The position numbers and the translations under genes are program-made. From the NCBI GenBank assembly GCA_903944345.1, contig CAJARJ010000020.1:18110-82109 (forward strand): a DNA stretch of 64,000 nt, written 5' to 3'. Positions 24,993 to 41,082 of this stretch are shown here, one piece after another. How positions within the stretch are numbered: the stretch's first letter is position 1; the number at the start of each line of letters is the position of its first letter. The notes below the pieces were generated by a model, which was not told the DNA's origin, did no database searches, and saw nothing but the letters and a program-made list of their open reading frames with translations. This stretch comes from Candidatus Omnitrophota bacterium (GTDB taxonomy: Bacteria; Omnitrophota; Gorgyraeia; Zapsychrales; Fredricksoniimonadaceae).

Positions 24993-26270
24993 TCAGAAAT
25001 TAATCAGCAAGCCCGTGCTTTCGCTCAAAGGCTGCTCAAAATAACTCCCGCGATTTTCTTTGTACGAGTTTTCTGCCAGCAGACGAGCCCGGACAACGTC
25101 GGCAGAGCCTGACAGACGGCCCAGCATGTCCTTGTAAACAGCAGGGAAATACTCTTCTTCCCGGGCTGCAACAAGCACGGCGCGCAAAACCTCCCGCTTG
25201 TTTTCAATAATCGATCGATAGGCTTGCGGTAACCGCGGCAACAACAAACAATGCTCCAGGTAATTAATGGCCCGGATATAGACCTGCCGGGCCTCTGCCA
25301 GAGCCAGATGCGAAGAAAGCACCAAAACACGTGCTTCGCGAACAGAATCGGGCAGCATGTCCAACTGCGCCAGGATCCTGTCAGTAACCGGCACCCCGGG
25401 CAGAGACAAACGGATCAGCTTGCCCTCCGAGACCCGCCCGTCGAGCGAAAAATCTTCTGCCGCCTTCTGCCAGAGGGCGACAAACTCCTGCCGCGCCTCC
25501 GCGACAACAGAGGCAAAGGAACGTTTAGGAAAAACTTCGCTGATATCATTGGCTGTGATCACCACTTCCCCGCTGAGCGCGGCGACCTTGTCACCCTCAT
25601 TAAGCTGTGGAAGTCCCAGCAGTCCCACCGCATCACGCACAACATGCACTGACCTACGCCCGTCTTCAAGCGTCCCGGCATCCTGAATGCAGGGCAGAAA
25701 TGAAAACGGCGCTTTGACCTTGCGACAATCGCCAAGCGCCCGCATCAATCCGTTATCCTGCCTGGCCAGCAGACATTCCCGGACTGAAAGCTTGCGCAAG
25801 CGTTCGTTCAGGTTATCAGAGGGTAAATCCAGCCTTAATAGTCCCAGCTCTTCCAGCAACAAGCTCTGCATGGACTGTGTCCGGTAATGTTTAACAATAT
25901 CTGCCAGCGCGGGACTGGAATACGACAAACGCAACAGGTCATACGCACTGACCGGAACCTTATCCAGCAGGCGTCGGGATAAAAGAGGCCGCAGCCCCTC
26001 CTCAATTTCCTGCCGGAACGCCAGCTCACGATCGTCCAGGCGTACCGGCCGCAGCAGCGGGCCAGTCGAAGCCTTGTCCAGCTCGCTCACTTTGGCTTGG
26101 TGCTGTGCGCGGTCAAGGCCCGGTGTCCGATAATAACAAAACCCCCGGTCGTCAATAACCGCCTTGCGTAAACGGGTATCCGCAGGCGCGTCCGGTGCAA
26201 AAATATCAGCGGCCGCCGGCACTCCCACCAAAAGCAGAACCAGAGGGAACCATCTTAGAACAAACAGCAT
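24993..26270 (-). CDS. Secreted protein of unknown function, last gene of the Tra/Pil operon
   Basis: The signal peptide is MLFVLRWFPLVLLLVGVPAAADIF. The start at the ATG at 26270 has a GGAG RBS and overlaps the traU stop by 16 nt. I recognise no motif. Its size and position next to the TraU-like gene recall the PFL_4711-type partner in ICE T4SS, but this is unverified. Confidence 0.5.
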   Translation of the reverse strand: MLFVLRWFPLVLLLVGVPAAADIFAPDAPADTRLRKAVIDDRGFCYYRTPGLDRAQHQAKVSELDKASTGPLLRPVRLDDRELAFRQEIEEGLRPLLSRRLLDKVPVSAYDLLRLSYSSPALADIVKHYRTQSMQSLLLEELGLLRLDLPSDNLNERLRKLSVRECLLARQDNGLMRALGDCRKVKAPFSFLPCIQDAGTLEDGRRSVHVVRDAVGLLGLPQLNEGDKVAALSGEVVITANDISEVFPKRSFASVVAEARQEFVALWQKAAEDFSLDGRVSEGKLIRLSLPGVPVTDRILAQLDMLPDSVREARVLVLSSHLALAEARQVYIRAINYLEHCLLLPRLPQAYRSIIENKREVLRAVLVAAREEEYFPAVYKDMLGRLSGSADVVRARLLAENSYKENRGSYFEQPLSESTGLLINF

Positions 26271-27157
26271 TCTTTCTGTCTCCAATAAATCCAGACATAA
26301 CTGCCGTCCGCCGAACGCCGGCCGTTCTCCCACAGATCCGCCTGCTCTCCGACGCGCAAGCAACGGCTCTTTGACGGAAAGACCATCTGCAACCGATCCC
26401 TCAATTTGTCTGGCGAGAACATGGCCGGCACAATAATCCGATGCGGAACCAGCATGTTCAACGAAGCAATATCCACCGCCCGGTAGGCTGCCACGGCCGA
26501 GCCGACGGCCTCGCTATAATGAACCAGCTGTCCGGTCCGCGGAAACAACGGCCCCCAGCTGCCCAGACATGCCACAGCCGACAAAGGATGCAGGAAGTTC
26601 TCACACACCGGCCCGGCTGCGGCCAGAAGACGCGCCAGAGGATGCCCTGCTTCCCCGCGACCAACGCGCCACTCGGCAGCGTCAATCTCACTTAAATAGG
26701 ACAATGGCCCCGCAAGATCCGGGGGCCCCTCGCACGGCGCCAGAATAAGAGCAGACACCTGATCAGATAAAGGAAAACCGTAAACATGAACATCGTTCAT
26801 TTGCAAGGCCGTGGTGTCGGAGGCGTACGCGCTCCCGCTGTCGGGAGCGGCCTGACATTCCGCCGCCGCAGTAATGGTCTTGTTCCCCAATGACTGCAAA
26901 AACTTTCCCGCCAACGGACGCAATTCGTCAATCATGACCCGGCCCGGCATCTTGACGGTCTCAACAAGCAAGACCGGTTGACGGTAACGCACTCGCACCC
27001 CCACAAAAGGAGGAGTCGACCGCCGACAAACACCGATCACACGAAAATCCACACAATCCAGATCAGCGCGTAATGCCAGCGTGGACAGACTCTCAGCGCA
27101 GACAGGTACGGACAGCACAAGCCATATCAGCACAGAAACATTTATTACCCGGAACAT
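26255..27157 (-). CDS. traU: TraU-like conjugative T4SS periplasmic protein
   Basis: It has a signal peptide. YLSEIDAAEW compares with F TraU YLSEIDPTW. The C-terminal YVWIYWRQKECCLF compares with F TraU GYLMWRKRNCVFL. An AGGAGAG RBS is present. Confidence 0.75.
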   Translation of the reverse strand: MFRVINVSVLIWLVLSVPVCAESLSTLALRADLDCVDFRVIGVCRRSTPPFVGVRVRYRQPVLLVETVKMPGRVMIDELRPLAGKFLQSLGNKTITAAAECQAAPDSGSAYASDTTALQMNDVHVYGFPLSDQVSALILAPCEGPPDLAGPLSYLSEIDAAEWRVGRGEAGHPLARLLAAAGPVCENFLHPLSAVACLGSWGPLFPRTGQLVHYSEAVGSAVAAYRAVDIASLNMLVPHRIIVPAMFSPDKLRDRLQMVFPSKSRCLRVGEQADLWENGRRSADGSYVWIYWRQKECCLF

Positions 27158-27178
27158 AAGAGCTCTCCTGCCGGAACA

Positions 27179-28102
27179 TCAGCCGCAACGAATGATCCAG
27201 AACATGGCCAAAGACGGCTGCATATTATTGTGCGCCTGGCCGCCCCCAGCGTTTTCTGTCGGATGAAGATATGGCACCGCCGGAATATTGTCATAATCCA
27301 GCGACTCCGCGTTCCCTTGCGCTGACCCGCCCCACCCCTGATTCTCGCTGAAAGTGTAATCATACATATTATGCTTGTGAGCGGGCATTTCCGGGATCGT
27401 CAACACATGCATCTCTGCCCCCAGCCGGCCACCTAGTACCGATGCTGACGGATGACTAACCACATTCGCCGCACTGCCCGTCATATTGTCCATTCCAATG
27501 GGCACGCGTCCCCGAAGGTCAGGCAAGGCAAACGTACTTGTTCCGTCTCCAGCACCATAAACTGTACCGATCAACGCAAACAAAAGAGTGTACTGCTCAC
27601 GTGAAATCGTCCGGCCGTCGCAAGGCAACCAACCCTCAGGTATTGTCGTGCCGGGCCAGGGGATCATGCTGCCAATCGGAAGGGCGGCATCAGGATCCTG
27701 GGCAAAACCGATATCCGACTGCACCCGGCCGTCTTGAACAACGCTTATTGGTGTCATACGCGCAACAAAGGCGGACAGCTGCGCAGGAACTTCTGTCTCA
27801 AGCATCATCCCGGCCCCCGATGAAGATAAAACATACTGACCTCCAAAAGGGTTTTTGCCCTCCCACGCCGCAGGCATATAGCCACCCTCCCTTAAATTTT
27901 GCCAATTCTGCGGCCAGACATGCTCTTTACGCTGAAATGCCCTGACAGCCTCGGTGATCCGCCCTATCTCCGCGACCGTGATGCGGGCAGCCTCAAGCTG
28001 GACACCGCGCAGAACACCGGGCACAACAATACTGACCAGAAGCCCCGCAATCAGCAGAGAAATCGACAGCTCAATCAGAGAAAATCCCTTGTCCGACCCC
28101 AT
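27179..28102 (-). CDS. Minor type IV pilin fused to a phage tail-collar (MdpB-like) domain; putative tip adhesin
   Basis: The class III signal is MGSDKG|FSLIELSISLLIAGLL. The C-terminal half reads GWLPCDGRTISREQYTLLFALIGTVYGAGDGTSTFALPDLRGRVPIG...MPAHKH...GGGQAHNNMQPSLAMFWII, which is the Collar/MdpB signature. A GGAGGTGG RBS is present. Confidence 0.8.
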   Translation of the reverse strand: MGSDKGFSLIELSISLLIAGLLVSIVVPGVLRGVQLEAARITVAEIGRITEAVRAFQRKEHVWPQNWQNLREGGYMPAAWEGKNPFGGQYVLSSSGAGMMLETEVPAQLSAFVARMTPISVVQDGRVQSDIGFAQDPDAALPIGSMIPWPGTTIPEGWLPCDGRTISREQYTLLFALIGTVYGAGDGTSTFALPDLRGRVPIGMDNMTGSAANVVSHPSASVLGGRLGAEMHVLTIPEMPAHKHNMYDYTFSENQGWGGSAQGNAESLDYDNIPAVPYLHPTENAGGGQAHNNMQPSLAMFWIIRCG

Positions 28103-28110: not shown

Positions 28111-28551
28111 CTAGAAAGTCGCCAGCCAGGTTTTGGCCCCTGCGTCATAGGAAAGTGTTTCCGCTTTCCCCCGAAACAATCTGGAAAGACCAGCCGCAGC
28201 ATTATCCGGCACACTCGAAAGCGCAATGTCCACCCGGGTGCGATCCGCTGTATTTGCGTTCACCCGATAATCACCGCCATAACTGTTTGCCCCCGTCGGG
28301 TCAAACGTAGCGGGCAAATACCCGGAACTCTTCATGGCTTCGATACTAATACCTTCATACGTCAGACTCATCACCGACAGATAGTTTTGCGCTGCCAGAC
28401 GCAGGTTATCAACCGACTGGGCCTCTCTTTGCAGACGTGCCTGCGCAGCCATCCCCCCTCCAGCACTAATCATGCCGACGAGCATGGCAATAAGTCCCAA
28501 TGCAATCGAAAGTTCAACAAGAGAAAAACCATCATTTTTGTTTACTCGCAT
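28111..28551 (-). CDS. Type IV pilin (probable major subunit)
   Basis: It has the prepilin leader and N-methylation motif MRVNKNDG|FSLVELSIALGLIAMLVG. It also has the strongest RBS of the operon (AAGGAGGAGCGG-ATG). Confidence 0.8.
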   Translation of the reverse strand: MRVNKNDGFSLVELSIALGLIAMLVGMISAGGGMAAQARLQREAQSVDNLRLAAQNYLSVMSLTYEGISIEAMKSSGYLPATFDPTGANSYGGDYRVNANTADRTRVDIALSSVPDNAAAGLSRLFRGKAETLSYDAGAKTWLATF

Positions 28552-28582: not shown

Positions 28583-29662
28583 TCATGGGTGCATCATCCC
28601 TATATTTGCCAGATTCCCATACAGCGGCCTGAAAAAGGCAAAAACCAGCAACGCCATCACCCCCGCACACAGAAGGATCAACGCCGGCTGCAAAAAATCA
28701 ACAACCCGCTTGACCCGGGACTCCAGAGAACGCCGGCATAGCTGGTAACCCCGGAAGAAATACTCGTCAAGGCATCCGGATAACTCCCCGACTCTAAGAG
28801 TCTCGCCAACCCAGGAAGGGAAATACGCATCCTGCAAAAACGCGGACGACAGCATCTGCCCGCTGACCAGTCTGGTCCGGCAAGAATTCATGTGATAACG
28901 AGTCCGGCCTCCCGACGCGACAGCTGCCTCCGCCAGAGATTCATCCAGAGTAATTCCGCTTTTAAGCATCAACGACAACAGAAAAAATCCCATGGCCAGC
29001 TCCCGATCCCGAATCAGTCGCCCCACAAAAGGACACCGGGCCTGCCAGCCCGAGAACACAAGCGGCTCGGTTCTTTGCACCAGCCAAAGTCCGCCAACGA
29101 TAAGTAAGACAATTCCCAGCCAAAACGGCCACTGCATCCTCACTGTGCAAGCCAGACGCAACATGCCCCCGGTCAAAGGCCCGGAAAAAGTGCTCTGCGG
29201 CAAAAGGCTGCCCAGCCGCGGAACAATCTCGAACGAAATATAACCGGCAACCAAAAGCAGAATGACCAGCACAAACAAAGGATATCCCATAGCTCCAGCC
29301 AGCTGATGTCCTACCTCGTCGCTGGCATGGTAATATTCCGCCAAAGCCCGGGCTGAACGGGAAATTTGTCCTGCCTTGCCGGCAGCGTTGAGTGCGCGCA
29401 AGGCACATTCTTCGAAAATACCGCACTCCCCCATGGCCTGCCCAAGAGACAAGCCCCGGTCAAGGGAACGAAGCATATGCGCACAGGCCCGCGCCAGCGT
29501 CCGGCTTCCGGAAGCCCCTTCGAGGCAGCGCAGCGCGGCACCAAGCGAGAGTCCGGCAGAAAGCATGTTGGAAAGATCTTCGAAAAAGAACGCGGCCTCA
29601 GCCGCCGACAGCTTCTGCCCGGAATAGAATATCCTTAACCAAGAACCCTGACCGCTTCGCAT
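28583..29662 (-). CDS. Type II secretion / type IV pilus platform protein (GspF/PilC family)
   Basis: It has two repeats of the T2SSF pattern (FFFEDLSNMLSAGLSLGAAL; FFLLSLMLKSGITLDESL) and three TM blocks. The start is set at the ATG at 29662, which has a GGAAGGAG RBS; the ORF-track start at 29854 would overlap the ATPase gene by 220 nt. Confidence 0.8.
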   Translation of the reverse strand: MRSGQGSWLRIFYSGQKLSAAEAAFFFEDLSNMLSAGLSLGAALRCLEGASGSRTLARACAHMLRSLDRGLSLGQAMGECGIFEECALRALNAAGKAGQISRSARALAEYYHASDEVGHQLAGAMGYPLFVLVILLLVAGYISFEIVPRLGSLLPQSTFSGPLTGGMLRLACTVRMQWPFWLGIVLLIVGGLWLVQRTEPLVFSGWQARCPFVGRLIRDRELAMGFFLLSLMLKSGITLDESLAEAAVASGGRTRYHMNSCRTRLVSGQMLSSAFLQDAYFPSWVGETLRVGELSGCLDEYFFRGYQLCRRSLESRVKRVVDFLQPALILLCAGVMALLVFAFFRPLYGNLANIGMMHP

Positions 29663-31245
29663 AACGACAACACTCCTTCCCTGACCAAACGACATGCATC
29701 TGCACGCATAGAAACAAACCCCGCGCGGGCGGCCTGCCGGGGCACAAGTTCGCTCATTAACCCCTGCTCGATAAGAAACCGGTCTTCTTCCTCTATACAG
29801 AAAATCTCGGCCACCACTGTCCTCCCGCTGAAGCCACCCCGGCAAGCGGAGCACCCAGCGGGGACAAAAAATTTCCGGTCACTGTGCAAAAGATATGCCT
29901 CGGCACCCGAAGGGATGCCACGGATATCCCCTTCCTTACGGCATTCCGGGCACAATTTACGCACCAGACGCTGGGCTATCACACAATTTAAAGTTGCGGC
30001 CAGATGCGCCCAATCCACGCCAAGGTCTCGCAGACGAAGAAAAGCTCCGGTCGCACTATTGGTATGCAGAGTAGAAAAAACCCGATGTCCGGTCTCTGCC
30101 GCCCGGACAGCCTCGCGAGCGGTTTTCTCGTCGCGAATCTCTCCGACCAGTACAATATCCGGATCATGCCGCAACAAGGCTCTGGTCACATCCGGAAAAT
30201 CGTATCCCTTGGCGCTGTCAACACTGACCTGGGTGACACATGAAGCCCGTACTTCAACCGGATCTTCCACAGATACGATCTTGATCTCGCTATCTTTTAC
30301 CCGACCGATCATGGCATGCAGTCCAGTGGTCTTACCGCAACCGGTCGGACCGGTGATTAAAACCAGTCCATGCGGACGCCGCAAGACGCGCTCCAGCACC
30401 TTCTGGTGTTCCGGCGAATATCCAAGCGGTTCCAGGGACATGGCTTCCCGCCCGCGTTCCAAAAGACGCAAAACCAGCGCAGAACCATTTAAAGACGGCA
30501 AATGGGAAACACGCACATCGACGACCCGTCCCCTGGCCTCAAATTCGAAACGGGCATCATGGAAACGCAAAAAGTCCCCCGCGCTGATCCCGGCACGCCG
30601 AAAAACCCGATTGACAAAAAATGGATGCTCTCCCAGCGGCCAGGAACGGTGAAAATGCAAAACACCGTCGATACGCAACCGGCTCTCGAAAGAAGACGAC
30701 GAAGGCTCGATATGAATATCTGTTGCTCCGGCAACTACAGCCTCGACCAGAATCCGGGCAACAGGATCATCGTCACCGGAATCCGCCCCTTCCGGTTCAG
30801 GACTGACACCACCGCCTGAAGAAGGCCTCAACAACTGCAAGGCCCGGTCAAGAGCACGCGGGGCGGCAACCATAAAAAAGATCTGCGAACCAAAAAGAGC
30901 CCTTAACTCATCGGTCAGTCCGGTCTGCAGGGTATCAGCCAGCACAAAAAATCGGCGTACGGCGCTCCGGGCCGGAAAAATCTTGCGCTTCCTGAAAAAG
31001 TCTTCCCCCAAAGCAGACAAAGCCTCCTGATCCACGCTCCAGTCTCCGTCATAATACGGCCACCCCGACTGCTCTGCTACAGCCCGCGCCACATCTTCTT
31101 CCCGACTCAAATGCTGTTCGACCAGTATCCGTCCCAGACGCCGGCCGCCGCCCTGCGCTTTTTGCACGGCCAGACACATGCTCAAATCTCCTGGACGCAA
31201 CTTATTGCGGCGTATAAGTATAGATCCAAGCCTTTCAGCACTCAT
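29635..31245 (-). CDS. Type IV pilus / T2SS assembly ATPase (PilB/GspE family) with an MshEN-like N-terminal domain
   Basis: The Walker A motif is GPTGCGKTT. The Asp box and Walker B lie at IVSVEDPVE...VLVGEIRD. The His box is TGHRVFSTLHTN. The tetracysteine motif is CPEC...CSAC. Confidence 0.9.
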   Translation of the reverse strand: MSAERLGSILIRRNKLRPGDLSMCLAVQKAQGGGRRLGRILVEQHLSREEDVARAVAEQSGWPYYDGDWSVDQEALSALGEDFFRKRKIFPARSAVRRFFVLADTLQTGLTDELRALFGSQIFFMVAAPRALDRALQLLRPSSGGGVSPEPEGADSGDDDPVARILVEAVVAGATDIHIEPSSSSFESRLRIDGVLHFHRSWPLGEHPFFVNRVFRRAGISAGDFLRFHDARFEFEARGRVVDVRVSHLPSLNGSALVLRLLERGREAMSLEPLGYSPEHQKVLERVLRRPHGLVLITGPTGCGKTTGLHAMIGRVKDSEIKIVSVEDPVEVRASCVTQVSVDSAKGYDFPDVTRALLRHDPDIVLVGEIRDEKTAREAVRAAETGHRVFSTLHTNSATGAFLRLRDLGVDWAHLAATLNCVIAQRLVRKLCPECRKEGDIRGIPSGAEAYLLHSDRKFFVPAGCSACRGGFSGRTVVAEIFCIEEEDRFLIEQGLMSELVPRQAARAGFVSMRADACRLVREGVLSLCEAVRVLG

Positions 31246-31697
31246 AACTCCACCCTCAGGACAATAGTTTCCCCCTGCGCACCTGTCAGAATTGCACCAT
31301 TTTCATCAAGCGAACTGACTTCAAAACCGCCAACACGCTCTTTTTCCCTTGCCCAAACTTGCTGGGCATCAAACTGAAAACAGCCCCGCCAAATCCCCGC
31401 GATAGAAACAACCGAACGCAAGGATAGCGTCAGCGACTGCGCCCGGGAAACCCCGTCCTTCGCTATATCACTGACCTGCAATGGGATATCCGTCCCTATT
31501 TTTTTTAACTCGTGCTCTACTCTGGCTTTTTCCAGATCAAGCTGCAACAGACGCAAGGATTGCTCTTTATCCTGCACACTGGAAGAATATGCTCTTAAGC
31601 GCGACAAAGATTCCTTCATATCCTCTTCTCCTGCTCTGACCGGACCTGACTGCAGCAAAAATGCTGCCACAATTACGGCTATTCCTGTTTTGATCAT
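31242..31697 (-). CDS. Periplasmic coiled-coil protein, PilP-like by position
   Basis: It has a signal peptide (IAVIVAAFLLQSGPVRAGE), a coiled coil and a short beta-rich C-terminus. It has ATGA overlaps at both ends. The assignment is positional only. Confidence 0.35.
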   Translation of the reverse strand: MIKTGIAVIVAAFLLQSGPVRAGEEDMKESLSRLRAYSSSVQDKEQSLRLLQLDLEKARVEHELKKIGTDIPLQVSDIAKDGVSRAQSLTLSLRSVVSIAGIWRGCFQFDAQQVWAREKERVGGFEVSSLDENGAILTGAQGETIVLRVEL

Positions 31698-32188
31698 CCT
31701 TTCACCTGCTCCCCTTTCACAACAATGACCAGCGTTAATACATCTTTTGTTTGTTTAAACTCTTCGAGCTCGAACAATCCTGAACGCATCCCCCCCGAGA
31801 TCACCGCCAACACCCGGCCCAGCATGGCCCGGTCACGGACAGACCCCAGCGATACCTGCAGGCGCGAAGAGTCCAACCCGTCGGCAGCCTCTGGCGAATC
31901 TGTGGAGGTCTGCCCCAAAGAGATTGTTTGCAGAAACACCGAAACTCCTTCCGCCCGGGTCAGATCCTGCAAAAATAGCGTCAGTCGTTCATGCGCCCCT
32001 GAAAGATCATCCGGTCGGCTGTGCGGTAAACTTTGCAAATTCTTTAAACGGCCCCCATCTTGCTGTAACCGGACACGAATCTCCTGCAAGGAAGTCTCCA
32101 CTGCGCGGACAGACTGGTAAACCCCAAGACCATTGTATAAACAGGACACAACCAATCCGCCGGCAAACAGCACAAGAAACAAGCGCAT
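31694..32188 (-). CDS. Bitopic inner-membrane protein, PilO/GspM-like by topology
   Basis: It has a single N-terminal TM (LFLVLFAGGLVVSCLY), a coiled coil and a small periplasmic domain. The assignment is positional. Confidence 0.35.
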   Translation of the reverse strand: MRLFLVLFAGGLVVSCLYNGLGVYQSVRAVETSLQEIRVRLQQDGGRLKNLQSLPHSRPDDLSGAHERLTLFLQDLTRAEGVSVFLQTISLGQTSTDSPEAADGLDSSRLQVSLGSVRDRAMLGRVLAVISGGMRSGLFELEEFKQTKDVLTLVIVVKGEQVKG

Positions 32189-32210
32189 ACCTTCCCTCTC
32201 TCAACAGACA

Positions 32211-33338
32211 TTAAAATCGCGGCTCAACCCGTACAGAGACCTCGACTGCCGGCCGTCCACCCTGAAAAATGCGGTTCAGCTTTCTTTGATGAAAAAGACC
32301 CTCCCGACCAAAACTTCCTTCTCCGCGCACAACAAGAACCGCACCAAAATGCCCTCCGCCTTGCGCATCAGCCCGCCATTGCAGGCTCGCCACAGTCCAT
32401 TCGGGCGGCATATTCCAGATCAATTGATAGAACAACTCATCAAGATTCACTGCCTGCCGGCGGCGCAAGCGTTCCTGATAGGTCTGCGCCAATGCCGAAC
32501 GCAGCAACACATACTGACTGTCCACCTCACGGCTCAACTCCGCACGTAAACTTTCCAACCGGCCAAGATGCTGACGCATAAAAAGATTACCGACGACAAG
32601 CAGACAACCAGTCCCCGCTACCAGTGCCCCTATAACCCAGGATCTTCGGCGACGCACAGAGGTTTCACGGCGTGAAAGCTCCTCAGGGGGCAGGAACCCG
32701 GTTGCAGGATTCCAGAAGCCCGCCGCCAGAAGCCCCGGCGACCCGGCGTCCATCCGCCGGGTCCGCCATCCGGTCTGTGCGGATATTTGCTCAAGACAGG
32801 GATGATTCGAAATTATGCACCGTTTATCCACAGCTGTGCACAACCTGGCACTGCGATGCAGTTCTTCCACTAACGCAGCAGTCTCCAAAGAAGGAAATTC
32901 ACGCGTCTCAACCACCCTGCCGTCCTCGATCACTGTAAGCAAGACCAAACCGCAGATTTCTTCAAGCACCATAACGACTCCGTCAGGAATACCCTGCTCG
33001 TGCCTGACAAAATATTGAGCGACCGCAAGCCCATACGGCGCGCAGCAGGCAATATTGTTCCCGGGGAACAGAGAAAAAATTTCACGGATCCGTTCAACCG
33101 GCATGGCCGCCAAAGAGAATCCCCCACCAGGCAGGCTTTGCTCCATATAAACATTGCTCTGCCCGGATGAAGTCTTGCTGTATGTCTTTTTATCCTCAAA
33201 AACAACCCCGGTCACCAGAACCTGTACCGGCTCCCGGAGAAATGAAAATTCGTCCTTAACGGCATTTCTGGGTATACGACGCAATTGTCCTTGCGTTTCA
33301 TAAATCACGCTGTCAAAAGTAAATACAAGTGTCATCAC
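32211..33338 (-). CDS. Bitopic assembly protein, GspL / PilM-PilN-fusion-like (R64 PilO position)
   Basis: It has a cytoplasmic domain of about 225 aa, one TM (SWVIGALVAGTGCLLVVGNLF), a periplasmic coiled coil and an alpha/beta domain. It has an ATGA overlap with the secretin gene. Confidence 0.4.
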   Translation of the reverse strand: MMTLVFTFDSVIYETQGQLRRIPRNAVKDEFSFLREPVQVLVTGVVFEDKKTYSKTSSGQSNVYMEQSLPGGGFSLAAMPVERIREIFSLFPGNNIACCAPYGLAVAQYFVRHEQGIPDGVVMVLEEICGLVLLTVIEDGRVVETREFPSLETAALVEELHRSARLCTAVDKRCIISNHPCLEQISAQTGWRTRRMDAGSPGLLAAGFWNPATGFLPPEELSRRETSVRRRRSWVIGALVAGTGCLLVVGNLFMRQHLGRLESLRAELSREVDSQYVLLRSALAQTYQERLRRRQAVNLDELFYQLIWNMPPEWTVASLQWRADAQGGGHFGAVLVVRGEGSFGREGLFHQRKLNRIFQGGRPAVEVSVRVEPRF

Positions 33339-34792
33339 AAGCCCTCCCTTGCGGGCGTCAGCATAATGACCAGTTCACTTCGGACACTCCGGCGGGTATC
33401 ATAAGAAAAGATACGCCCCAGAAACGGCAGACGGCCAAGAACCGGAACCCCGTGATGTCTGACCAGCGTATTGCGGGTAATAAGCCCACCAATAACTGCG
33501 GTCTGGCCAAAACGCAAACGCACCATGCTGCTCATCGATTTGACTGATGTTTCCGGAGCCTCAACCCGCGCGCCCTGGCCTAGCTCAACCGAACGGATAT
33601 CGTCAATCATGCTGACCACCGGAGTCACATTGATAAAAACCTCATCTCCAACAATATTCCCCATTAACTGCAGGGTCACTCCTCCATGCACATCCCCCAG
33701 GGTGACCGCGCTGATGGTCTGCCCCGTCTGGCTCATTGTGATGCCGCTCGAATCAATATAAGACCGGGTTTGCCCGACCTGGATACCGGCCAGGGTATTG
33801 TTCAGCATCGTAACCCGCGGCTGGGACACCACCTCAACCCGGCCAAAAACCTCCAGCGCGCGGATCAAGGATGTCACCCCTCCCTGGATTGCCCCTTGCC
33901 CATCTTCTGCTGACAGTTTCAAATAACCTCCGCCAGCAACATTCTCCCCGGAAAAATCCACCACGGCATTCAGGCTGTCCCGGCCTTTACGCTGAAGTAA
34001 TACGTTCCAGTCAATCCCCAGCTTGTGTTCGTTGGAAAGTTCGACTTCAACCAACTTGATATCGGCAAAGATCTGCCGCGACACCCGGGCATTGATTTCA
34101 TCCATAAATGAAGCCACCCGGCTCAACGCCACCGGCGCATCGGTAACCACCGCCAGTCCTCCGCTGCGATTCAGCGAGAGTGTCCCTGCCGGGGTCAACA
34201 AAGAACGGATATTGCGTTCAATATCATCCCAATACGACAACTCGCCGCTTTTGTTCTCCAGAAAAAGACCCGCCCCCACACGCACTCGTCCGGAGGCGCT
34301 ATTCTCTCCCGTCTGCACGCCTCCAGCCCGGCTTTCATTTGATGTCAGGCTTTCCCCTTTCTGCACAACCGGAGGAAGAAATACAGAGAAAATCCTGGTC
34401 TCGCTGGCCAGGACAACAAGATCTTCGCCCTGCTGCCGGACACCATAACCATCAGCATAAACAACGGCTTCCAATGCCCGTTCGACCGTAACCCCGGACA
34501 ACCGCAGATTGATCTCTTTGTCCCGAACACCCGGGCCGATAATCAGATTCTTACCCGCCGCATCGGCCATCAGCTGTAACACTTCATACAAACGAAAACG
34601 GCCGTTGAGCTTGACCGGCAGCGTCGGGGTTTGCTCCGGCATCTGCGCTATGGATTGACGTTCTTCCTGAATAGCCGCCGGACGGGCAGCAACACGTGCC
34701 CATTCTTCGGCCACAACCTTGTTTTCCTGCATCTCGGCCTTGGCCGGAACACTCAACAACATAAGACCCAAAAGCACCCACCCTGTTTTCAT
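33335..34792 (-). CDS. Secretin (type II/IV pilus secretin family, PilN/PilQ-like)
   Basis: The signal peptide is MKTGWVLLGLMLLSVPAKA. The C-terminal secretin signature is VVSQPRVTMLNNTLAGIQVGQ...TAVIGGLI...VPVLGRLPFLGRIFS...ELVIMLTP. The start at the ATG at 34792 has an ATGA overlap and an AAGGAGAG RBS. Confidence 0.85.
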   Translation of the reverse strand: MKTGWVLLGLMLLSVPAKAEMQENKVVAEEWARVAARPAAIQEERQSIAQMPEQTPTLPVKLNGRFRLYEVLQLMADAAGKNLIIGPGVRDKEINLRLSGVTVERALEAVVYADGYGVRQQGEDLVVLASETRIFSVFLPPVVQKGESLTSNESRAGGVQTGENSASGRVRVGAGLFLENKSGELSYWDDIERNIRSLLTPAGTLSLNRSGGLAVVTDAPVALSRVASFMDEINARVSRQIFADIKLVEVELSNEHKLGIDWNVLLQRKGRDSLNAVVDFSGENVAGGGYLKLSAEDGQGAIQGGVTSLIRALEVFGRVEVVSQPRVTMLNNTLAGIQVGQTRSYIDSSGITMSQTGQTISAVTLGDVHGGVTLQLMGNIVGDEVFINVTPVVSMIDDIRSVELGQGARVEAPETSVKSMSSMVRLRFGQTAVIGGLITRNTLVRHHGVPVLGRLPFLGRIFSYDTRRSVRSELVIMLTPAREGL

Positions 34793-35220
34793 TCGAGCTC
34801 TCCTTGCGTAATTTTCTGCCCCGATCCCGGCATCGGGGTTATGTCTGCGACAATAAACGCCCCGGAATGCGTCGGCGATTGCACCACTGGTACTGACAAA
34901 GGGAAAGCTCCGCTTTTCTTCCATTCCCCCGGGGTGATAATGACCGGCTCGGCATGCCGGGGATAAAAAACACCATCGGCAATATGCGCCGGAATGATCA
35001 CATCCTGAACCAGAGGAGCGCTCCAGCTGCCGTCAAGATACGGGAAATCATTACCGTTTAACCCTTCAACCACGTCTCCTATCTGTGCCGACACACCGGC
35101 TCGATACCCCTGCAAATACGTACCGCGTTCCCTGCGGCTGAAGTTCTTCTGCCCCACGCAACCGGCAGAGGCCAGCAGAACAACCACCAATCCCACCCAA
35201 CATCCCCTAACGTAACCCAT
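34789..35220 (-). CDS. Small putative lipoprotein at the T4SS/T4P junction (PilM or pilotin position)
   Basis: The start is trimmed to the ATG at 35220. The N-terminus is MGYVRGCWVGLVVVLLASAGCVGQ, with a lipobox-like SAGC. No motif is recognised. Confidence 0.4.
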   Translation of the reverse strand: MGYVRGCWVGLVVVLLASAGCVGQKNFSRRERGTYLQGYRAGVSAQIGDVVEGLNGNDFPYLDGSWSAPLVQDVIIPAHIADGVFYPRHAEPVIITPGEWKKSGAFPLSVPVVQSPTHSGAFIVADITPMPGSGQKITQGELE

Positions 35221-37723
35221 GTGGCATCTTTCCGGCGCACACCATAAGCGCCCTGGTGAGGTTCCCATCCTGTTGACGACGAATTTCATCCAGAAATTCG
35301 TTCTCCCTGGCATCGCTGGTTGCCGCCCAATACAAAAAAGGATCAGGAGCCAGACGAATGACCCCGCCGCCTGTACCGGCAAGCAGCAAAGCTTCTGAAT
35401 AGCGCCCCCGCACCGTAACCAGAGAACGCAAAAGTTCCCCGGTCTGCGGACTAAAGGCCAGCTCCCGGCACAACCGTTCAATAATCCCGCTTTCCTGACG
35501 TAAAAATATCTTGTGCGCGCTATTCGCCAGGATGGCCAATCCTGCCGGCTGCTGCAACAAGTCAGCGGTTTCCTGGGTCACCGCCACAGCCGCACAGCGA
35601 TATTTCCGAAACGTTTTGAAAGCCGCCGAAATGAAATCCGCTGTCGATGACGTTTTTAACAACTGCCAGGCCTCATCAATAATCAGAAACTTGTTTTTAC
35701 CGCGCAATTCCTCGGCCGAAACAAAGCCGGTTATCAAAAACATGATATTAAGCAAGGCCACCAGTTGCAGATCCGGGTAACGGGAGATTTGTGCCAGTTC
35801 AAAGACCGTAAAACGTCCTCCGGGTGCAAATTGATTCTGCCCGTCAAAGAAAGCCCCATACTGTCCCCTGCGGGTATAGGGCATAAGTCGCAGGGCCAGG
35901 CGAAACGCCATATCTGCTCCGCTGACCCCGGCGAAACAAACCGAAGGATCTTCCAGAACGGATACCACATCGCTTAGAACCAGCTCCCGACTACTGTTTT
36001 GATCATGCCGGGCATACGCCTCCAGCACAGCCAGATGCAGAACCCCTTTCTCTTCCCGCGAAAGGCGGTCACGTTCGTCCCCTCCGCTGGCCATTAATGC
36101 CAGCATATCTACCAGAAAAGCCAGCCCCTCGGACTGAAGCGTCCTGGCAAAAGGATTTATCAACACCGGGGAAGACATATCGAGTGAAACATAGCTGCCA
36201 CCCAGCACCTCGCAGGTCTTCCGGTAAGAGTGCCCCTTGTCGAGCACAAAGAAATGCGCTCCGGTCCGGTAGTTCTGATGAATAAAATCATTGGTAAAAA
36301 ATGATTTCCCTGCTCCTGAAGCGCCAATAATCACCGCATGCGGATTGGTGTCGGAATCAAACAGATCGAAGAACACCGGCTCCCCCCTGCGGTTAAGATA
36401 AACCGCCGCCGGCGTGCCAGTTCCCTGGAAGGCCCCATATAAAGGAAGCATATCCGCAAGATTGTCCGATAACATTCGCCTTTTACGTCGGATAAAAGGT
36501 TCGCGGCGATGATCATAATTCAATGGCAGGCAAGTCAGAAACAATGACGACCCGATAGCATCTTCCCGCACAGCCTGCATTCCACTGCGGCCCAGAAGAT
36601 GAATAATATGATCGGCCTGTCGCAACGACTCCTGCTCGTCAACACTGCCGCAGACAAAATGAATCCTGGCCTCAAGAACCGACTGTCCTCCCTGAAAAAG
36701 CCGGCTAATGACCGCACTAAGCTCTTCTTTCTTGCCTACGGCCTCCTCGCTGACATCTCCCAGCGAGGAAGACCGACGGATGAAAGCAAAAGCTTTCTGT
36801 GCCTTGAGCTTGGCGAGCGCCCGGCTCTGATCAGGCACAATAAAGTTGAAGACCATAGCCATATCGCCCAGCTCATCCCAGAAGCTTCCTCTGTGCCCGG
36901 CCAGCAACATCCCGGCGAAAGTCTGTGCGGGAAGCTCTTTAATGGTGACCATCCGCAGGGTCGTGCCGTCAAGTTTCAGCCCTTCGGAAGATATTTTCAC
37001 CGGACTATACAAAAGCTGATCCCGAATAAAACCCTGATCCCGAACGGGAGGCGGAACATGCTGCGAACGGCGGGGATTGAGCATTTTATACAAAAGAGCA
37101 GTTATGTCCTTTCCATCCAGGCAGACACAGGCAAGCCCCAGTGAACGCAGACCATTCTCGATCTGGCGAACCTGCCGCAAAAATTTCTCTTTATGTTCCT
37201 GCCATTGAAGAGAAATGACGCGTGACACCTGACGAGTATCACAAAAGAAAGCCTCTGCCCTGACCCCGCCAGGCACATTCCGCCAGGAAGGAAAGACGCG
37301 CACCGAGAAAATCAGCCTGATCCGCCTGACTTTCACTCGGTCCATCGTTTGTCCGTTTCGCGCCAGTGCGACCATGGAGGTCAAACGGCTGTCAAGCGCT
37401 GCGGCCACCACTTCCGAATTCTGCGCGCAACCAAACAAGCGATAACGCTCCAGCAAAGGCTCAATATCATCACTCCCCCATAGAATCACCTGCGCGTGTA
37501 CATCCGACGGAAGAGTTCCGATAAAAGCGGCCAATCCCAAAGAAAATTTTTCCCGCTCCTCGTCACAGGCCAGCTCCACATCACGGCTGACGATTTGCCA
37601 GACCCGACCCAGGCTGCCATCAACATTCAGTAATACGCCCTCAACCTCTTCTGCATAGGGCAAGTAATCAGCCAAAGATGGGCCATCGGCAAAAAGCTTG
37701 TTTATATCCTGGTCTTTCAACAT
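35207..37723 (-). CDS. traC: TraC/VirB4-family T4SS ATPase
   Basis: It is 838 aa. The N-terminus is F-TraC-like (LPYAEEVEGVLLNVDGSLGRVWQI). Walker A is IIGASGAGKSFF and Walker B is FLIIDEAWQLL. Confidence 0.9.
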   Translation of the reverse strand: MLKDQDINKLFADGPSLADYLPYAEEVEGVLLNVDGSLGRVWQIVSRDVELACDEEREKFSLGLAAFIGTLPSDVHAQVILWGSDDIEPLLERYRLFGCAQNSEVVAAALDSRLTSMVALARNGQTMDRVKVRRIRLIFSVRVFPSWRNVPGGVRAEAFFCDTRQVSRVISLQWQEHKEKFLRQVRQIENGLRSLGLACVCLDGKDITALLYKMLNPRRSQHVPPPVRDQGFIRDQLLYSPVKISSEGLKLDGTTLRMVTIKELPAQTFAGMLLAGHRGSFWDELGDMAMVFNFIVPDQSRALAKLKAQKAFAFIRRSSSLGDVSEEAVGKKEELSAVISRLFQGGQSVLEARIHFVCGSVDEQESLRQADHIIHLLGRSGMQAVREDAIGSSLFLTCLPLNYDHRREPFIRRKRRMLSDNLADMLPLYGAFQGTGTPAAVYLNRRGEPVFFDLFDSDTNPHAVIIGASGAGKSFFTNDFIHQNYRTGAHFFVLDKGHSYRKTCEVLGGSYVSLDMSSPVLINPFARTLQSEGLAFLVDMLALMASGGDERDRLSREEKGVLHLAVLEAYARHDQNSSRELVLSDVVSVLEDPSVCFAGVSGADMAFRLALRLMPYTRRGQYGAFFDGQNQFAPGGRFTVFELAQISRYPDLQLVALLNIMFLITGFVSAEELRGKNKFLIIDEAWQLLKTSSTADFISAAFKTFRKYRCAAVAVTQETADLLQQPAGLAILANSAHKIFLRQESGIIERLCRELAFSPQTGELLRSLVTVRGRYSEALLLAGTGGGVIRLAPDPFLYWAATSDARENEFLDEIRRQQDGNLTRALMVCAGKMPHGLR

Positions 37724-37725
37724 CT

Positions 37726-38133
37726 CTATGGCTCCTTGGCCGTATCCGGAACTTGCGGAATAATGACGGACATCTCCTGATCCATTCCCTGTTGTCGATC
37801 AATAAACCATTCGGCCGGGCGCAACATCACAAATGCCCAGTGCCCGCCAACCATTACCTCCCGCTCTCCTCCGGAAACATGCGCGGGCACCCAGACTTTG
37901 ATAACCTTGGGAGGAAGAACAACGGGGACATACGGCTTCACATGCCCTGTATCGACTCCCCAAACCACCGTTTGTGACTCTTTCTCTGCCCCCGAAGACC
38001 GGGCAGCAGCACGATACGTTCCTCCCAAGGTCACAGCGTCTTTCCTGACGACACTCACCGGACCTCGTGCAGACAAAGAGCAGCCGCTAGTCAACAGAAC
38101 GATAAAAATCAACCGAATCCCGAGCCATCCCAT
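37726..38133 (-). CDS. TraV-like outer-membrane lipoprotein (VirB7 analogue)
   Basis: It has a lipobox-like N-terminus (LIFIVLLTSGCSL) and is small. It sits in the position between traB and traC, as in F-type operons. Confidence 0.5.
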   Translation of the reverse strand: MGWLGIRLIFIVLLTSGCSLSARGPVSVVRKDAVTLGGTYRAAARSSGAEKESQTVVWGVDTGHVKPYVPVVLPPKVIKVWVPAHVSGGEREVMVGGHWAFVMLRPAEWFIDRQQGMDQEMSVIIPQVPDTAKEP

Positions 38134-39241
38134 GGATACGAAATCCTTTCTGTACGATCACATACACACGTACTCCCGGTTGAACCATCACTGCCGGAAC
38201 AATCATGTCCAGTTGCTGCTGGTAGTACCGCGACAACTGTGCGGTGCTCTGGGCCATCCCCGAAAAAAGCGCATGTTTGGCCGCATTGCCGGTCAATGTC
38301 CGTGACTCTTTCCCGTCTTGCGTAACGGCAGAGACTTCCCCGTCGGCGACAGCCTGCGAAGCTCCGCCCATAAACCCACTCATAAACGATGCCGCCAGAC
38401 GCCCTGCGGTATTGCGCACAACCACACCTTTAAGCCCCAGCTGCCCCGAACGATCCGTCAAATACCCGAAAACTCCCGACTGTTCAAAACTTGCTCCTGT
38501 CGGAAAAACAGCCGCCAGTTTTTCCGCTTCAATCAAAGCCCGCTCGCTGTTAAGATCGCCCGTCGCCTTGCCCAGAACAAAAGCTCCTTCAAGTGCAATC
38601 GCCGAAGCATTCGGACCGGTAAAGGCTTCATCAAGCCTGATCAGGACGGGCAAAGAATTGTTCCCGTCCGCCGGAGCGTACACTCCGGTCAACAGTGTCC
38701 CCGACACAAAGCTGCCCGCCGGCAGATACACATCCATGGACTCCTGATCGGGTTCCTGCACGGCTACTATGTCAAGCTGCTGGCGTGATTCTGCCCCATT
38801 CTTGTCTGCTGGTTCGCTCCCTTCCCTACGTAACCGTTTGGCAACCGCCTGCAGGCTCAGCACAGCAGTTTTTGTTTTCTTTATCGATTCACGCATCTCC
38901 TCGAACCTGGTGTTAAGTTTTGTAACCTTGCGGGACATTTCGTCATTCTTGCGTGCGACACTGTCATATTGTTTTTCCAGGCGTTCGACATAAGCCTTGC
39001 GATCCACCTCTTCTCCCAGAAACATTCCTCTGCCCGTATCTTTAAGTTGCCCTGTCGAAGAAACAGCCTGTACGACACCATGAGACTCCTGCCCTTTGCC
39101 TCTCTCCTGTTTTGACGAAAAGACAAACATCAGGACAAAAAAAAGAGCCGCTCCCGCCGCAATAATCAGCAGACCGCTCTTCTCACTTCCGGACCCAACC
39201 CTTTCAAACAAACCGCGCAAGCGGGCTAACAAATCTTTCAT
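38087..39241 (-). CDS. traB: TraB/VirB10-family T4SS core protein
   Basis: It has an N-terminal TM, a coiled coil and then the TrbI/VirB10-type barrel region LPAGSFVSGTLLTGVYAP...LPVLIRLDEAFTGPN...GDLNSERALIE...GYLTDRSGQLGLKGVVV, which resembles F TraB. Confidence 0.75.
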   Translation of the reverse strand: MKDLLARLRGLFERVGSGSEKSGLLIIAAGAALFFVLMFVFSSKQERGKGQESHGVVQAVSSTGQLKDTGRGMFLGEEVDRKAYVERLEKQYDSVARKNDEMSRKVTKLNTRFEEMRESIKKTKTAVLSLQAVAKRLRREGSEPADKNGAESRQQLDIVAVQEPDQESMDVYLPAGSFVSGTLLTGVYAPADGNNSLPVLIRLDEAFTGPNASAIALEGAFVLGKATGDLNSERALIEAEKLAAVFPTGASFEQSGVFGYLTDRSGQLGLKGVVVRNTAGRLAASFMSGFMGGASQAVADGEVSAVTQDGKESRTLTGNAAKHALFSGMAQSTAQLSRYYQQQLDMIVPAVMVQPGVRVYVIVQKGFRIHGMARDSVDFYRSVD

Positions 39242-39957
39242 CGCCTTAACACCAGATACAGGGTTGTAGAATCACTCTTACGTCCGCGTGCCTGCAAGAT
39301 GTCTCGCTCAACCGTGCCAAGCAGCAGTCCCGGCAAACTCAACCTTTGCAGAGGAATCACCAATGCCCGACCAAGCAGATTCTCAGCCCGCACCACCCAT
39401 CCTTTAAGTTGGGCTGTCGTATAACTCCTGATCACAGTCAGACGCATGGTCTTATCCTGCCAGAGCAGCTCCGAATCGCTTGACTCCGTCGCGCCAGAAG
39501 GCTTTTGCCCTAAAACCATGGCCTTGAGCATGCCCAAAGCATGATCTTGCCTGAAGGAAACAGCGGCCGTATCTCTGGAGATATAAATACGTTCCCCCGA
39601 AAAAACCTGTTGCTCAAGAGAAAGCTCCGAGGAGGAAAACCTGATCCTGAAAGAACGACCTCCACGATCAATAATCACCAATTCAGAATTATCACAACGC
39701 CGTGGCGTAACAAAAACCCGGCCGGGCGCATGTTCTACCTCGAGCGCTTCGGAACTTCCTGAACGAACCAGGTGCGACACTCCGCCCTCGACAACTATCT
39801 CGGTCATGTGCCCCGGAGTGCACGCAATCAGGCTGCTTCCCTCTTGCTCAATACGTAGCGGCACCTGCGCCTCGGCCAAAGTACAGACAAAACATAATCC
39901 AAGAACAAAACCCAAGACCCTAAAGCGCATCCTCATCTGCCTCCTTTGACCAGACAT
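39238..39957 (-). CDS. TraK-like (VirB9 analogue) periplasmic / outer-membrane core protein
   Basis: It has a signal peptide (VLGFVLGLCFVCTLAEAQ) and is about 240 aa and beta-rich. It lies between the traE-like gene and traB, with an ATGA overlap to traB. The assignment is mainly positional. Confidence 0.55.
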   Translation of the reverse strand: MSGQRRQMRMRFRVLGFVLGLCFVCTLAEAQVPLRIEQEGSSLIACTPGHMTEIVVEGGVSHLVRSGSSEALEVEHAPGRVFVTPRRCDNSELVIIDRGGRSFRIRFSSSELSLEQQVFSGERIYISRDTAAVSFRQDHALGMLKAMVLGQKPSGATESSDSELLWQDKTMRLTVIRSYTTAQLKGWVVRAENLLGRALVIPLQRLSLPGLLLGTVERDILQARGRKSDSTTLYLVLRR

Positions 39958-40507
39958 CCTCTACAACAAGACCATAAATATTCTCTCCAGCCGCCGGGAC
40001 TCGCCGCACAACAACAACATAACGCACATCTTTCATTGCAATTTCTTCCTTGCCCATATAAACCCCGCGCTTGCCGTCGATTTCTACCCGGAATGAGCGC
40101 CCTTCGGAAGCAACCCGTGCGTCATCTGTAAGCGTAAATATCGATGAAAGCCGGTCAGAAAGAATCTTTCCGCGTTCCTCCTGCGAACGGGCGCGGACTT
40201 TGGAAAGCAGCTGTGGTCCCATAAACCGGAAAGCCCGCGAATAAACTCCGTCAATCGTCTCTGGAGTATAATTCATCCAGTCCATTAACCAGGCCGAAGC
40301 GAAAGAAAGAACCGAACTTTCTGGTATCCGGTCGGGATAAGCCAGGCCCGCTTGTGCTGCCCCCGGAATATAATAGATCGGACGGGGCCGAAACGCTGTC
40401 ACCGCCAGCAATACAGCGAATATCACGCTTAAGCTTCCCAAAAGATAAAGAACATAATGCAGTTTTACATTCTCGAATTCCGCTCCGGCATAACGTTCAA
40501 AAAACAT
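39920..40507 (-). CDS. TraE-like (VirB8 analogue) bitopic T4SS protein
   Basis: The start is trimmed to the ATG at 40507, which has an AAGGAAGG RBS. It has a single N-terminal TM (YVLYLLGSLSVIFAVLLAVTAF) followed by a periplasmic domain of about 150 aa. It follows traL. Confidence 0.5.
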   Translation of the reverse strand: MFFERYAGAEFENVKLHYVLYLLGSLSVIFAVLLAVTAFRPRPIYYIPGAAQAGLAYPDRIPESSVLSFASAWLMDWMNYTPETIDGVYSRAFRFMGPQLLSKVRARSQEERGKILSDRLSSIFTLTDDARVASEGRSFRVEIDGKRGVYMGKEEIAMKDVRYVVVVRRVPAAGENIYGLVVEDVWSKEADEDAL

Positions 40508-40793
40508 CCTGGCCTTCCTTGCTATAAATGCTGTAAAAACGCTCGGGCCCCGGCGGCAGCAATCCTCTGAAGCCAACTCCCTGCCGGTACAGCCAATGAA
40601 TCAGATATCCTTCCGGTTTCCCGCGCTTGAACGCGGCCAGACATGGCCAGATGAAAAACAACGCGATCAACGGAACTGCCGGAGAAAACACAATTGCCGG
40701 TACCCCGCACAATAAAAGAATCACAGCGACATCTTCACCCTCAAGGCCCAGAATAAGAAGAGGCCGGTCAATTGTTCTTGGACACGGTTTCAT
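40497..40793 (-). CDS. traL: TraL-like (VirB3 analogue) small membrane protein
   Basis: It is 98 aa. The pattern IDRPLLILGLEGEDVAVILLLCG fits the TraL pattern (xxD.P..ilG...de followed by a TM). It lies directly after the pilin gene. Confidence 0.6.
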   Translation of the reverse strand: MKPCPRTIDRPLLILGLEGEDVAVILLLCGVPAIVFSPAVPLIALFFIWPCLAAFKRGKPEGYLIHWLYRQGVGFRGLLPPGPERFYSIYSKEGQDVF

Positions 40794-40794
40794 T

Positions 40795-41082
40795 TTATCC
40801 TCCGAATATCCCCAGAAAATTGGGCAGAAATACCAGCGCCAGCAAGGCTAAAACACAACCCACCGCGGCCCCGTACTCCTGATGAATAATTTTCCAGACC
40901 CCAATAAGTAAAAATACCAGCGCCAGAACCTTGGAAGCCGGTCCGGTCATAACCTTGACCATAAAATCCGCCAGACCGTTAAATTCCGTCACCGCCCGTT
41001 CCTGTGATCCCGACTGGGCAAAAGCAACCTGGCTCCACAAACTTAAGATCATCCCCGCCAAAACAGGCAACACCTTCTTCAT
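40795..41082 (-). CDS. VirB2/TraA/TrbC-type conjugative pilin
   Basis: It is 95 aa. The signal peptide ends AFA|Q, and two hydrophobic helices follow (VLALVFLLIGVW; VGCVLALLALVFLPNFLGIF). An AAAGGAG RBS is present. Confidence 0.6.
   Translation of the reverse strand: MKKVLPVLAGMILSLWSQVAFAQSGSQERAVTEFNGLADFMVKVMTGPASKVLALVFLLIGVWKIIHQEYGAAVGCVLALLALVFLPNFLGIFGG

Follow-up and report, generated by a model that had tools for sequence, protein, structure and literature searches.

In the survey in which modular pilins were defined, 1,219 proteins with 264 different architectures were collected, including 29 of the pilin-Peptidase_S74 type, and modular pilins were proposed to be exposed at the pilus tip (Raynaud et al. 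2021, PNAS; PMC8179133). The tail-collar domain, Collar (IPR011083), appears there in two singleton architectures only, pilin-FN3-Collar x3 and pilin-Shufflon_N-Collar; the plain pilin-Collar arrangement is absent from the survey, and the Collar type is never discussed in it (PMC8179133). In the same paper, the minor pilins CofB (ETEC CFA/III) and TcpB (V. cholerae TCP) are described as tip-located trimers that serve secreted proteins as adaptors (PMC8179133); the partner of CofB is CofJ, and that of TcpB is TcpF. Each of these two pilins is the single minor pilin of its system and consists of a pilin module, a linker and C-terminal beta domains with beta-repeat and beta-sandwich/lectin folds. 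For PilV, the tip adhesin of the thin pilus of R64 (IncI1), whose gene comes last among the pilin genes of a pil operon linked to a T4SS, binding to the lipopolysaccharide (LPS) of the recipient cell and determination of the partner by the C-terminus have been reported (PMC12282955).

The protein considered in the present study, designated pilin::Collar, is encoded in a window of 64 kb, i.e., the whole stretch of Omnitrophota DNA that was analyzed. Its ORF (27179..28102, minus strand; 307 aa) has no internal stops, contains verbatim all of the motifs quoted in the original prediction, and corresponds to a putative modular minor pilin made up of a pilin module, a short linker and a Collar/gp12-like module. 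The combination of N_methyl and Collar places it among the modular pilins sensu Raynaud et al. (2021). The start codon is credible: in the sequence TAG-GAGGTGGT-ATG, the upstream pilin gene ends with TAG, and a Shine-Dalgarno-like stretch separates this stop from the start. Because of this spacing, and because 21 nt lie between the stop codon of the gene and the ATG of traU, the gene can be described as tightly packed within its operon. At least 14 independent contigs in ENA, JGI and NCBI assemblies carry the identical protein, the longest of them measuring 630,836 bp; a 90%-identical relative was found on 23 contigs, and the two-module ORF in 11 distinct related genome loci, with full-length orthologs of 30–90% identity in many genomes. 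The pilin-Collar fusion is thereby confirmed as real, being neither a frameshift nor an assembly artefact.

At its N-terminus, the protein starts with the leader peptide MGSDKG (28085..28102, minus strand), which ends at a predicted prepilin-peptidase cleavage site, G/F. The signal sequence MGSDKG/FSLIELSISLLIAGLLVSIVVPG is of class III, with a hydrophilic leader ending in Gly, Phe at +1, a hydrophobic tract of about 21 residues and Glu at +5, and it was recognized by both Pfam N_methyl PF07963 (IPR012902; 22.2 bits, cut-off 21.2, residues 3–26) and NCBIfam TIGR02532 (25.1 bits for the 307-aa protein, cut-off 16.3); residues F7, L9 and E11 are invariant across 14 orthologs. The pilin module that follows (residues 7–133; 27704..28084, minus strand) has the long alpha-1 helix packed on an antiparallel beta-sheet that characterizes the pilin fold, and it matches the adjacent 146-aa pilin with an E value of 4e-8, the match reaching into the globular part. 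Judged by its sequence, this module is a paralogue of the neighboring major pilin. Its best full-family resemblance in NCBIfam is to the T2SS major pseudopilin GspG, and its sequence is closer to T4a pilins and GspG than to T4b pilins. The linker (residues 134–143; 27674..27703, minus strand) is poorly conserved, with a mean pairwise identity of 0.26 among the orthologs.

The C-terminal half was assigned to Collar by Pfam above the gathering threshold (PF07484, E 8.9e-26, 90.1 bits, cut-off 24, residues 144–201), and a Gp10_C match (PF21939, residues 198–305) was obtained at 22.9 bits, below the cut-off of 27; the whole Collar/gp12-like module spans residues 144–305. The original prediction of a normal pilin (residues 1 to about 135) fused to a tail-collar domain (about 141 to 307) is thus borne out on both halves, by the class III signal peptide with the pilin fold and by the Collar match, and within one uninterrupted ORF. 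It had named two findings that would count against it: the lack of a Collar match in the C-terminal half, where Pfam returned Collar at the E value given above, and a frameshift separating two genes, where the fusion proved to be kept across many genomes and assemblies.

The Collar core (residues 144–201; 27500..27673, minus strand; ortholog identity 0.67) aligns to T4 gp12 from residue 341 and to other tail fibres. Downstream of it, MPAHKH of the window protein pairs with MSYHKH of gp12 (residues 442–447), so that the HxH motif H242-K-H244 (27371..27379, minus strand) corresponds to H445-K-H447 and forms a predicted metal site on the trimer axis. In the “knitted” trimer of T4 gp12, Zn is bound on the threefold axis by His445 and His447, to which each of the three chains contributes (PMC3004832). 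The HxH motif is nearly invariant among the Collar relatives; of two divergent orthologs (L014 and L015) that both lack a stretch of about 26 residues of the collar core, L014 also lacks HxH, and the metal site is therefore not universal. Between HxH and GGxAHN lies a hypervariable segment (residues 245–285; 27248..27370, minus strand), for which the mean pairwise identity of the orthologs falls to 0.28, with indels, against 0.61–0.67 in the flanking segments. A surface that determines specificity would be expected to vary in this way, and the segment is a candidate for contacting the ligand. The module closes with a conserved strand (residues 286–307; 27182..27247, minus strand) that carries the GGGQAHNNMQPS motif, lies within the Gp10_C-like match, and has G286, H291 and P296 invariant. 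The window protein and its 90%-identical relative have 32 differences, which are evenly spread along the protein, with no concentration in the variable loop.

An AF2 monomer model built from a 57-sequence alignment had a mean pLDDT of 82.6. The pilin module was modeled as a 52-residue alpha-1 helix with a beta-sheet (pLDDT 84–97), the linker (about residues 134–143) was less confident (pLDDT 63), and the C-terminal beta module was poorly defined only at residues 256–274 (pLDDT <50); in an earlier model from a shallow alignment of 22 sequences, the whole of residues 200–297 had remained below 50, and the deeper alignment improved this region. In the structural comparison of the C-module with trimeric phage fibres, the scores were 7.6 for the cyanophage A-1(L) fibre, 7.4 for T4 gp12 and 6.8 for gp37, and Foldseek together with sequence and profile searches of the PDB agreed on this resemblance to phage fibres. 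Collar with its head domain and the HxH metal site are shared by T4 gp12, the fibres of cyanophage A-1(L) (8kec) and phage Pa223 (9nxk), and the actinophage minor tail proteins; in the phages, however, the module follows a long trimeric shaft on the baseplate, whereas in the window it follows a pilin, in a pilus/T4SS operon free of phage genes. Over 92–100% of its length, the C-module shares 41–43% identity with minor tail proteins from phages of Arthrobacter, Microbacterium and Microcystis, and at least 80% of the module is covered by 316 phage records. About equally similar are the abundant cellular Collar proteins of the “microcystin-dependent protein” type (MdpB-type/COG4675), which share the same Collar and Gp10_C-like module and are the most numerous relatives of this half; they have no pilin module, and many of them have tandem Collar domains or are PEP-CTERM-anchored. 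The earlier designation of the C-terminal half as MdpB-like holds at the domain level and should not be taken as anything beyond a domain-level label.

The gene is embedded in a cluster of about 25.0–42.3 kb on the minus strand. The cluster opens with an F-like T4SS part (35207..42344), in which Pfam and NCBIfam identified, in the direction of transcription, a 421-aa multi-TM TraG_N-like membrane protein, a 95-aa VirB2/TrbC-like pilin (both of these assignments are weak, below the cut-off), TraL, TraE, TraK-like, TraB, TraV and TraC proteins. The pilus part follows, beginning with a secretin and four unannotated accessory genes (31242..35481, minus strand), in the order accessory protein of about 143 aa (~143–230 aa), secretin (Pfam Secretin; phmmer 1e-31 with R64 PilN), 375-, 164- and 151-aa proteins, an order like that of R64 PilM-N-O-P. 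Next come the assembly ATPase (T2SSE) and the T4P platform (T2SSF; 28583..31245 for both, minus strand), assigned by Pfam and matched by phmmer to R64 PilQ (2e-37) and PilR (2e-4), the major pilin candidate of 146 aa, equivalent to PilS (28111..28551, minus strand; N_methyl 23.2 bits; 53–58% identical in related loci), and pilin::Collar itself. TraU (Pfam E 3e-28) and a 456-aa TraH-like protein are encoded directly downstream (24993..27157, minus strand), the latter matching the Pfam-TraH protein of a related locus (L019) with an E value of 8e-35. Thus, pilin::Collar is encoded together with the ATPase, platform, secretin and major pilin of a T4P machinery, and, with only two pilin genes in the operon, it is the last and apparently the only minor pilin gene of the pilus part. 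On one side, the cluster borders on rml-type sugar-nucleotide genes; on the opposite side, GAPDH, a 1980-aa surface protein and MTHFR are encoded. The remainder of the 64 kb carries metabolic or envelope-biosynthetic genes.

The R64 order PilM-N-O-P-Q-R-S-(T-U)-V is matched by the pilus part of the window, with similar gene sizes, and in both cases the gene compared is the last pilin gene in a pil operon linked to a T4SS. Recognizable sequence similarity is limited to the generic secretin, ATPase and platform; none was detected for the PilV, PilS and PilM/O/P equivalents, and by phmmer the accessory proteins have no recognizable resemblance to those of R64. Between pilin::Collar and R64 PilV, BLASTP gave an E value of 0.08 for a match confined to the helix, hhalign gave a probability of 2.2%, and Pfam found no Shufflon_N (PF04917) in pilin::Collar. 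Hence the original prediction that the gene occupies the position of PilV is right as to gene order and does not extend to detectable homology. Its remark that no shufflon is visible agrees with our repeat search, in which no sfx-like repeat set, alternative 3′ segments or recombinase (Rci) were found at the locus, where the gene directly abuts traU. The R64 operon includes PilT and PilU, which are missing from the window operon, and no retraction ATPase (PilT) was found elsewhere in the window; the T4SS is F-like (TraU, TraH, TraL), in contrast to the MPF_I system of R64. A further difference is that the cluster is chromosomal, with neither relaxase nor coupling protein nearby: domain scans of the 64-kb window, in which linkage of these two would mark a conjugative T4SS, found no relaxase, coupling protein, VirB11 or integrase, so that a conjugative role in this genome is hypothetical. 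No PLSDB plasmid contained a full-length match to pilin::Collar, and the best plasmid matches of the ATPase were generic GspE proteins of 32–36% identity. The host system is a chromosomal F-like T4SS/T4P hybrid cluster of Omnitrophota-type genomes, not an IncI-like plasmid.

A scan of genomes with the linked TraU as the query yielded 13 loci. Ten of them are labelled Omnitrophota/Omnitrophica (including one Candidatus Omnitrophus), the others Planctomycetales, Candidatus Elulimicrobium and “bacterium”; one locus (L009) lies on the same contig as that (L001) of the homologue P0002. In all 11 distinct loci that include the upstream DNA (TraU 33–54% identical), an ORF of 288–331 aa with the pilin motif and Collar directly precedes traU, and the synteny ATPase-platform-pilin-(small gene)-pilin::Collar-TraU-TraH-like is conserved. 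The small gene, often present as one extra gene between the two pilin genes of the related loci, could be a further minor pilin; the additional gene of some related loci is a small gene or a pilin. The flanks of the related loci contain core housekeeping genes, some recurring between genomes, and no recurrent T4CP or relaxase was found in them.

An exhaustive HMMER search with the pilin half alone returned 186 representative clusters, mostly of proteins of 250–340 aa. Among the 150 members of this pilin family that were scanned (149 relatives and the query), Collar was detected in 19 by Pfam and in about 30 by a custom HMM, and in three of the set, proteins of 1190–1491 aa, the C-terminus is formed by Peptidase_S74, known from tail spikes and fibres as an intramolecular chaperone. 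Fusions with fibre modules are recurrent in this pilin family. The relatives differ in their genomic contexts. One lies in an F-like cluster that also has TraF-like and TraH genes (L019), and the S74-type relatives are encoded in T4P clusters without Tra genes. In another relative, P0154, the gene of a type IV coupling protein comes directly after pilin::Collar and is accompanied by toxin-antitoxin modules and two integrases, which is a mobile-element setting.

Taken together with the described systems, these data suggest that pilin::Collar is probably a bimodular minor type IV pilin acting as a homotrimeric tip adhesin, with the layout of CofB/TcpB and a tail-fibre head. The layout of these pilins, a single minor pilin with a pilin module, a linker and C-terminal beta domains, is reproduced in the window protein, whereas their C-terminal domains are not Collar, and CofB and TcpB match the window protein through the pilin module only. 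Since the sequence of the N-module is T4a/GspG-like and not T4b-like, the analogy is organizational and does not rest on homology. The Streptococcus sanguinis pilin PilB (pilin-vWA) likewise combines a pilin module, a short linker and an unrelated functional module serving adhesion; it belongs to the T4aP of a monoderm, in contrast to the T4SS-embedded pilus operon of Omnitrophota in the window. Modules of the gp12 type form obligate trimers, with the HxH metal site holding the chains together, and because, in addition, only a single minor pilin is encoded, priming and capping of the pilus by a homotrimer is the most economical model. We infer the tip location, the trimeric state and the ligand of pilin::Collar from these analogies, the trimer from the homology to gp12 only; gp12 is also the only source for assuming that the C-module would bind a receptor (LPS or glycan).

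According to this model, a prepilin peptidase encoded elsewhere would cut after Gly6, and three copies of the mature protein would nucleate pilus assembly and remain at the distal end, like CofB and TcpB in type IVb pili. The C-terminal modules would intertwine into a metal-clamped homotrimer resembling the tip of a phage fibre, and the hypervariable surface would bind the partner cell at an LPS-like surface glycan or at some other receptor of its envelope. Attachment, possibly followed by retraction, would bring the cells into contact, upon which the co-encoded T4SS could engage. The partner could be a conjugation recipient, as in the role of R64 PilV; this would fit P0154 with its coupling protein and integrases, and the P0154 context argues for a conjugative ancestry. 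Since R64 PilV binds recipient LPS, a convergence between an LPS-binding fold of phages and a mating adhesin is plausible. Omnitrophota are uncultured, ultra-small bacteria that are thought to be host-dependent, and the partner could alternatively be their host or prey cell; with an arrangement that is chromosomal, lacks a T4CP and is widely conserved, a domesticated contact apparatus is conceivable. In a more far-reaching version, which we regard as possible but doubtful, Omnitrophota would have domesticated a conjugation-type T4SS and an accessory pilus with a fibre-like trimeric tip into a chromosomally fixed, vertically inherited docking device for host or prey, possibly delivering or acquiring macromolecules, not transferring plasmids, with the loop of residues 245–285 setting its specificity.

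Given the modular pilins already described, the architecture is conceptually unsurprising. What seems to be new here is a modular pilin with the receptor-binding head of a phage fibre, without a shufflon, in a T4SS-embedded operon conserved across a candidate phylum. No paper was found in a full-text literature search for “minor pilin” together with “tail collar”, and in the main survey of Omnitrophota genomics, T4aP, Tad pili and giant ORFs are discussed with no mention of conjugation or type IV secretion. The protein would be a concrete example of a pilus borrowing the partner-recognition hardware of phages, and with a C3-symmetric tail-fibre tip carried by three pilin stems, it would be understandable that a single minor pilin both primes assembly and confers specificity. 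It is also a defined and expressible candidate for the partner-selecting molecule in Omnitrophota, and its C-module, once labelled, might serve as a probe for finding partner cells, used in the manner of a phage receptor-binding protein.

Alternatively, the tip trimer could be an adaptor for a secreted partner protein, as in the CofB-CofJ and TcpB-TcpF pairs, the pilus being a secretion or presentation device like the T2SS pseudopilus. The service of CofB and TcpB to secreted proteins, as presented in the modular-pilin survey (PMC8179133), is a precedent for it, the GspG resemblance of the N-module and an operon with a secretin, one ATPase and no PilT would suit it, and small conserved unannotated genes adjoin pilin::Collar in the related loci. 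We nevertheless consider it unlikely: Collar/gp12-type modules in phage fibres bind their receptors directly, the hypervariable segment fits the recognition of a variable foreign surface, and no candidate for the secreted partner was found in the window operon.

A quite improbable alternative to the tip adhesin is a lectin anchored in the membrane or at the surface, for which the pilin-type signal would provide export and anchoring only, with no assembly into a filament. The complete pilin globular fold, paralogous to the neighboring major pilin, the invariance of E5, and the fixed position in the pilus operon of 11 distinct related loci all speak against such a protein, even though domain scans found no prepilin peptidase (Peptidase_A24) gene within the 64-kb window and many cellular Collar proteins that are not pilins, some of them PEP-CTERM-anchored, are among the nearest relatives of the C-module.

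Chance placement of a prophage or tailocin tail-fibre gene beside the pilus genes, which the strong similarity to phage minor tail proteins and the NCBI name “tail fiber protein” of P0002, a 42%-identical full-length homologue in an Omnitrophota MAG, might bring to mind, is extremely improbable; it is refuted by the gene content of the window, which includes no phage structural genes, and by the conserved synteny of a gene that is translationally linked within the pil/tra operon and has 133 N-terminal residues of pilin. The joining of a pilin gene and a separate Collar gene by a sequencing or assembly error has a practically negligible probability, being refuted by the independent contigs and the orthologs, with further full-length database proteins sharing the pilin-Collar architecture and no point found in its support.

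The public annotation of the family is inconsistent. On the contigs that carry the identical protein, it is labelled only as [quoted passage not shown], and across the family the names “tail fiber protein”, “prepilin-type ... protein” and “microcystin-dependent protein/PulG” are in use.

The pilin::Collar gene belongs to a hybrid cluster on the minus strand (window positions 24993-42344), in which genes of an F-like type IV secretion system (T4SS) are interleaved with a complete type IV pilus (T4P) operon. The T4SS set comprises TraL, TraE, a TraK-like protein, TraB, TraV, TraC, TraU and a TraH-like protein, together with VirB2-like and TraG_N-like ORFs, for both of which the assignment is weak. 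The surroundings of the cluster are chromosomal, with housekeeping genes, and the 64-kb window contains no gene for a relaxase, a coupling protein, VirB11 or an integrase. The same T4SS/T4P hybrid cluster is kept in Omnitrophota-type MAGs and is not mentioned in the main Omnitrophota genomics paper.

A different setting was found for P0154, the 303-aa pilin::Collar gene product of contig ENA ERZ1426828. Its gene is directly followed by that for a 640-aa type IV coupling protein (T4SS-DNA_transf/TrwB/TraG-D_C), and RelE/MqsA/PIN toxin-antitoxin genes and two tyrosine recombinases also follow. This contig thus represents the mobile-element form of the system.

Note that the starts of three window pil genes taken from a mechanical ORF listing, namely those of the T2SSF platform protein (28583-29854), the secretin (33335-34924) and a "230-aa" ORF (34789-35481), run into the upstream genes. 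Since these proteins are shorter in the public gene calls on a relative with a 90% identical pilin::Collar (359, 485 and 143 aa, respectively), their true starts are probably located further downstream.

In related loci, one to three additional small genes separate the major pilin gene from pilin::Collar (L001, 9469-10011; L010, 8532-8990; L019, 8613-10026), some of them with pilin motifs and those of L019 with weak Bundlin hints. The window has no such genes, and the gap between its two pilin genes is 8 nt.

The most divergent pilin::Collar orthologs were those at loci L014 (1216-2085) and L015 (595-1461). Their collar cores are devoid of a stretch of about 26 residues, equivalent to residues 164-189 or thereabouts, and the L014 ortholog is also missing the HxH motif, so a metal-free or otherwise remodelled form of the Collar module may exist.

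Pilins of the same family are also joined to regions of approximately 1000 aa with Peptidase_S74, the intramolecular chaperone of tail-spike/fibre proteins, at the end (P0174, P0175 and P0242; L018, 8554-12486, and L020, 10001-14476). Each of these is, in effect, an entire tail-fibre-like protein with a pilin for its stem. The T4P clusters that encode them contain no Tra genes, and an STT3/PglB oligosaccharyltransferase gene adjoins the L020 fusion.

Just past GAPDH and adjoining the Tra-Pil cluster, the window encodes a 1980-aa protein (17598-23540, minus strand) with a papain-like Peptidase_C1, PKD domains and six InlB B-repeats (Flg_new_2); this candidate secreted or surface protease-adhesin is conserved at 86% in the related contig L002. 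Elsewhere in the window, three B12-binding radical SAM genes and one SPASM radical SAM gene (797-2443, 3860-4927, 7689-9134 and 15218-16693) are interspersed with glycosyltransferase (GT9, GT2), methyltransferase and UbiA genes, and this may be an unusual region for envelope-glycan or lipid modification.
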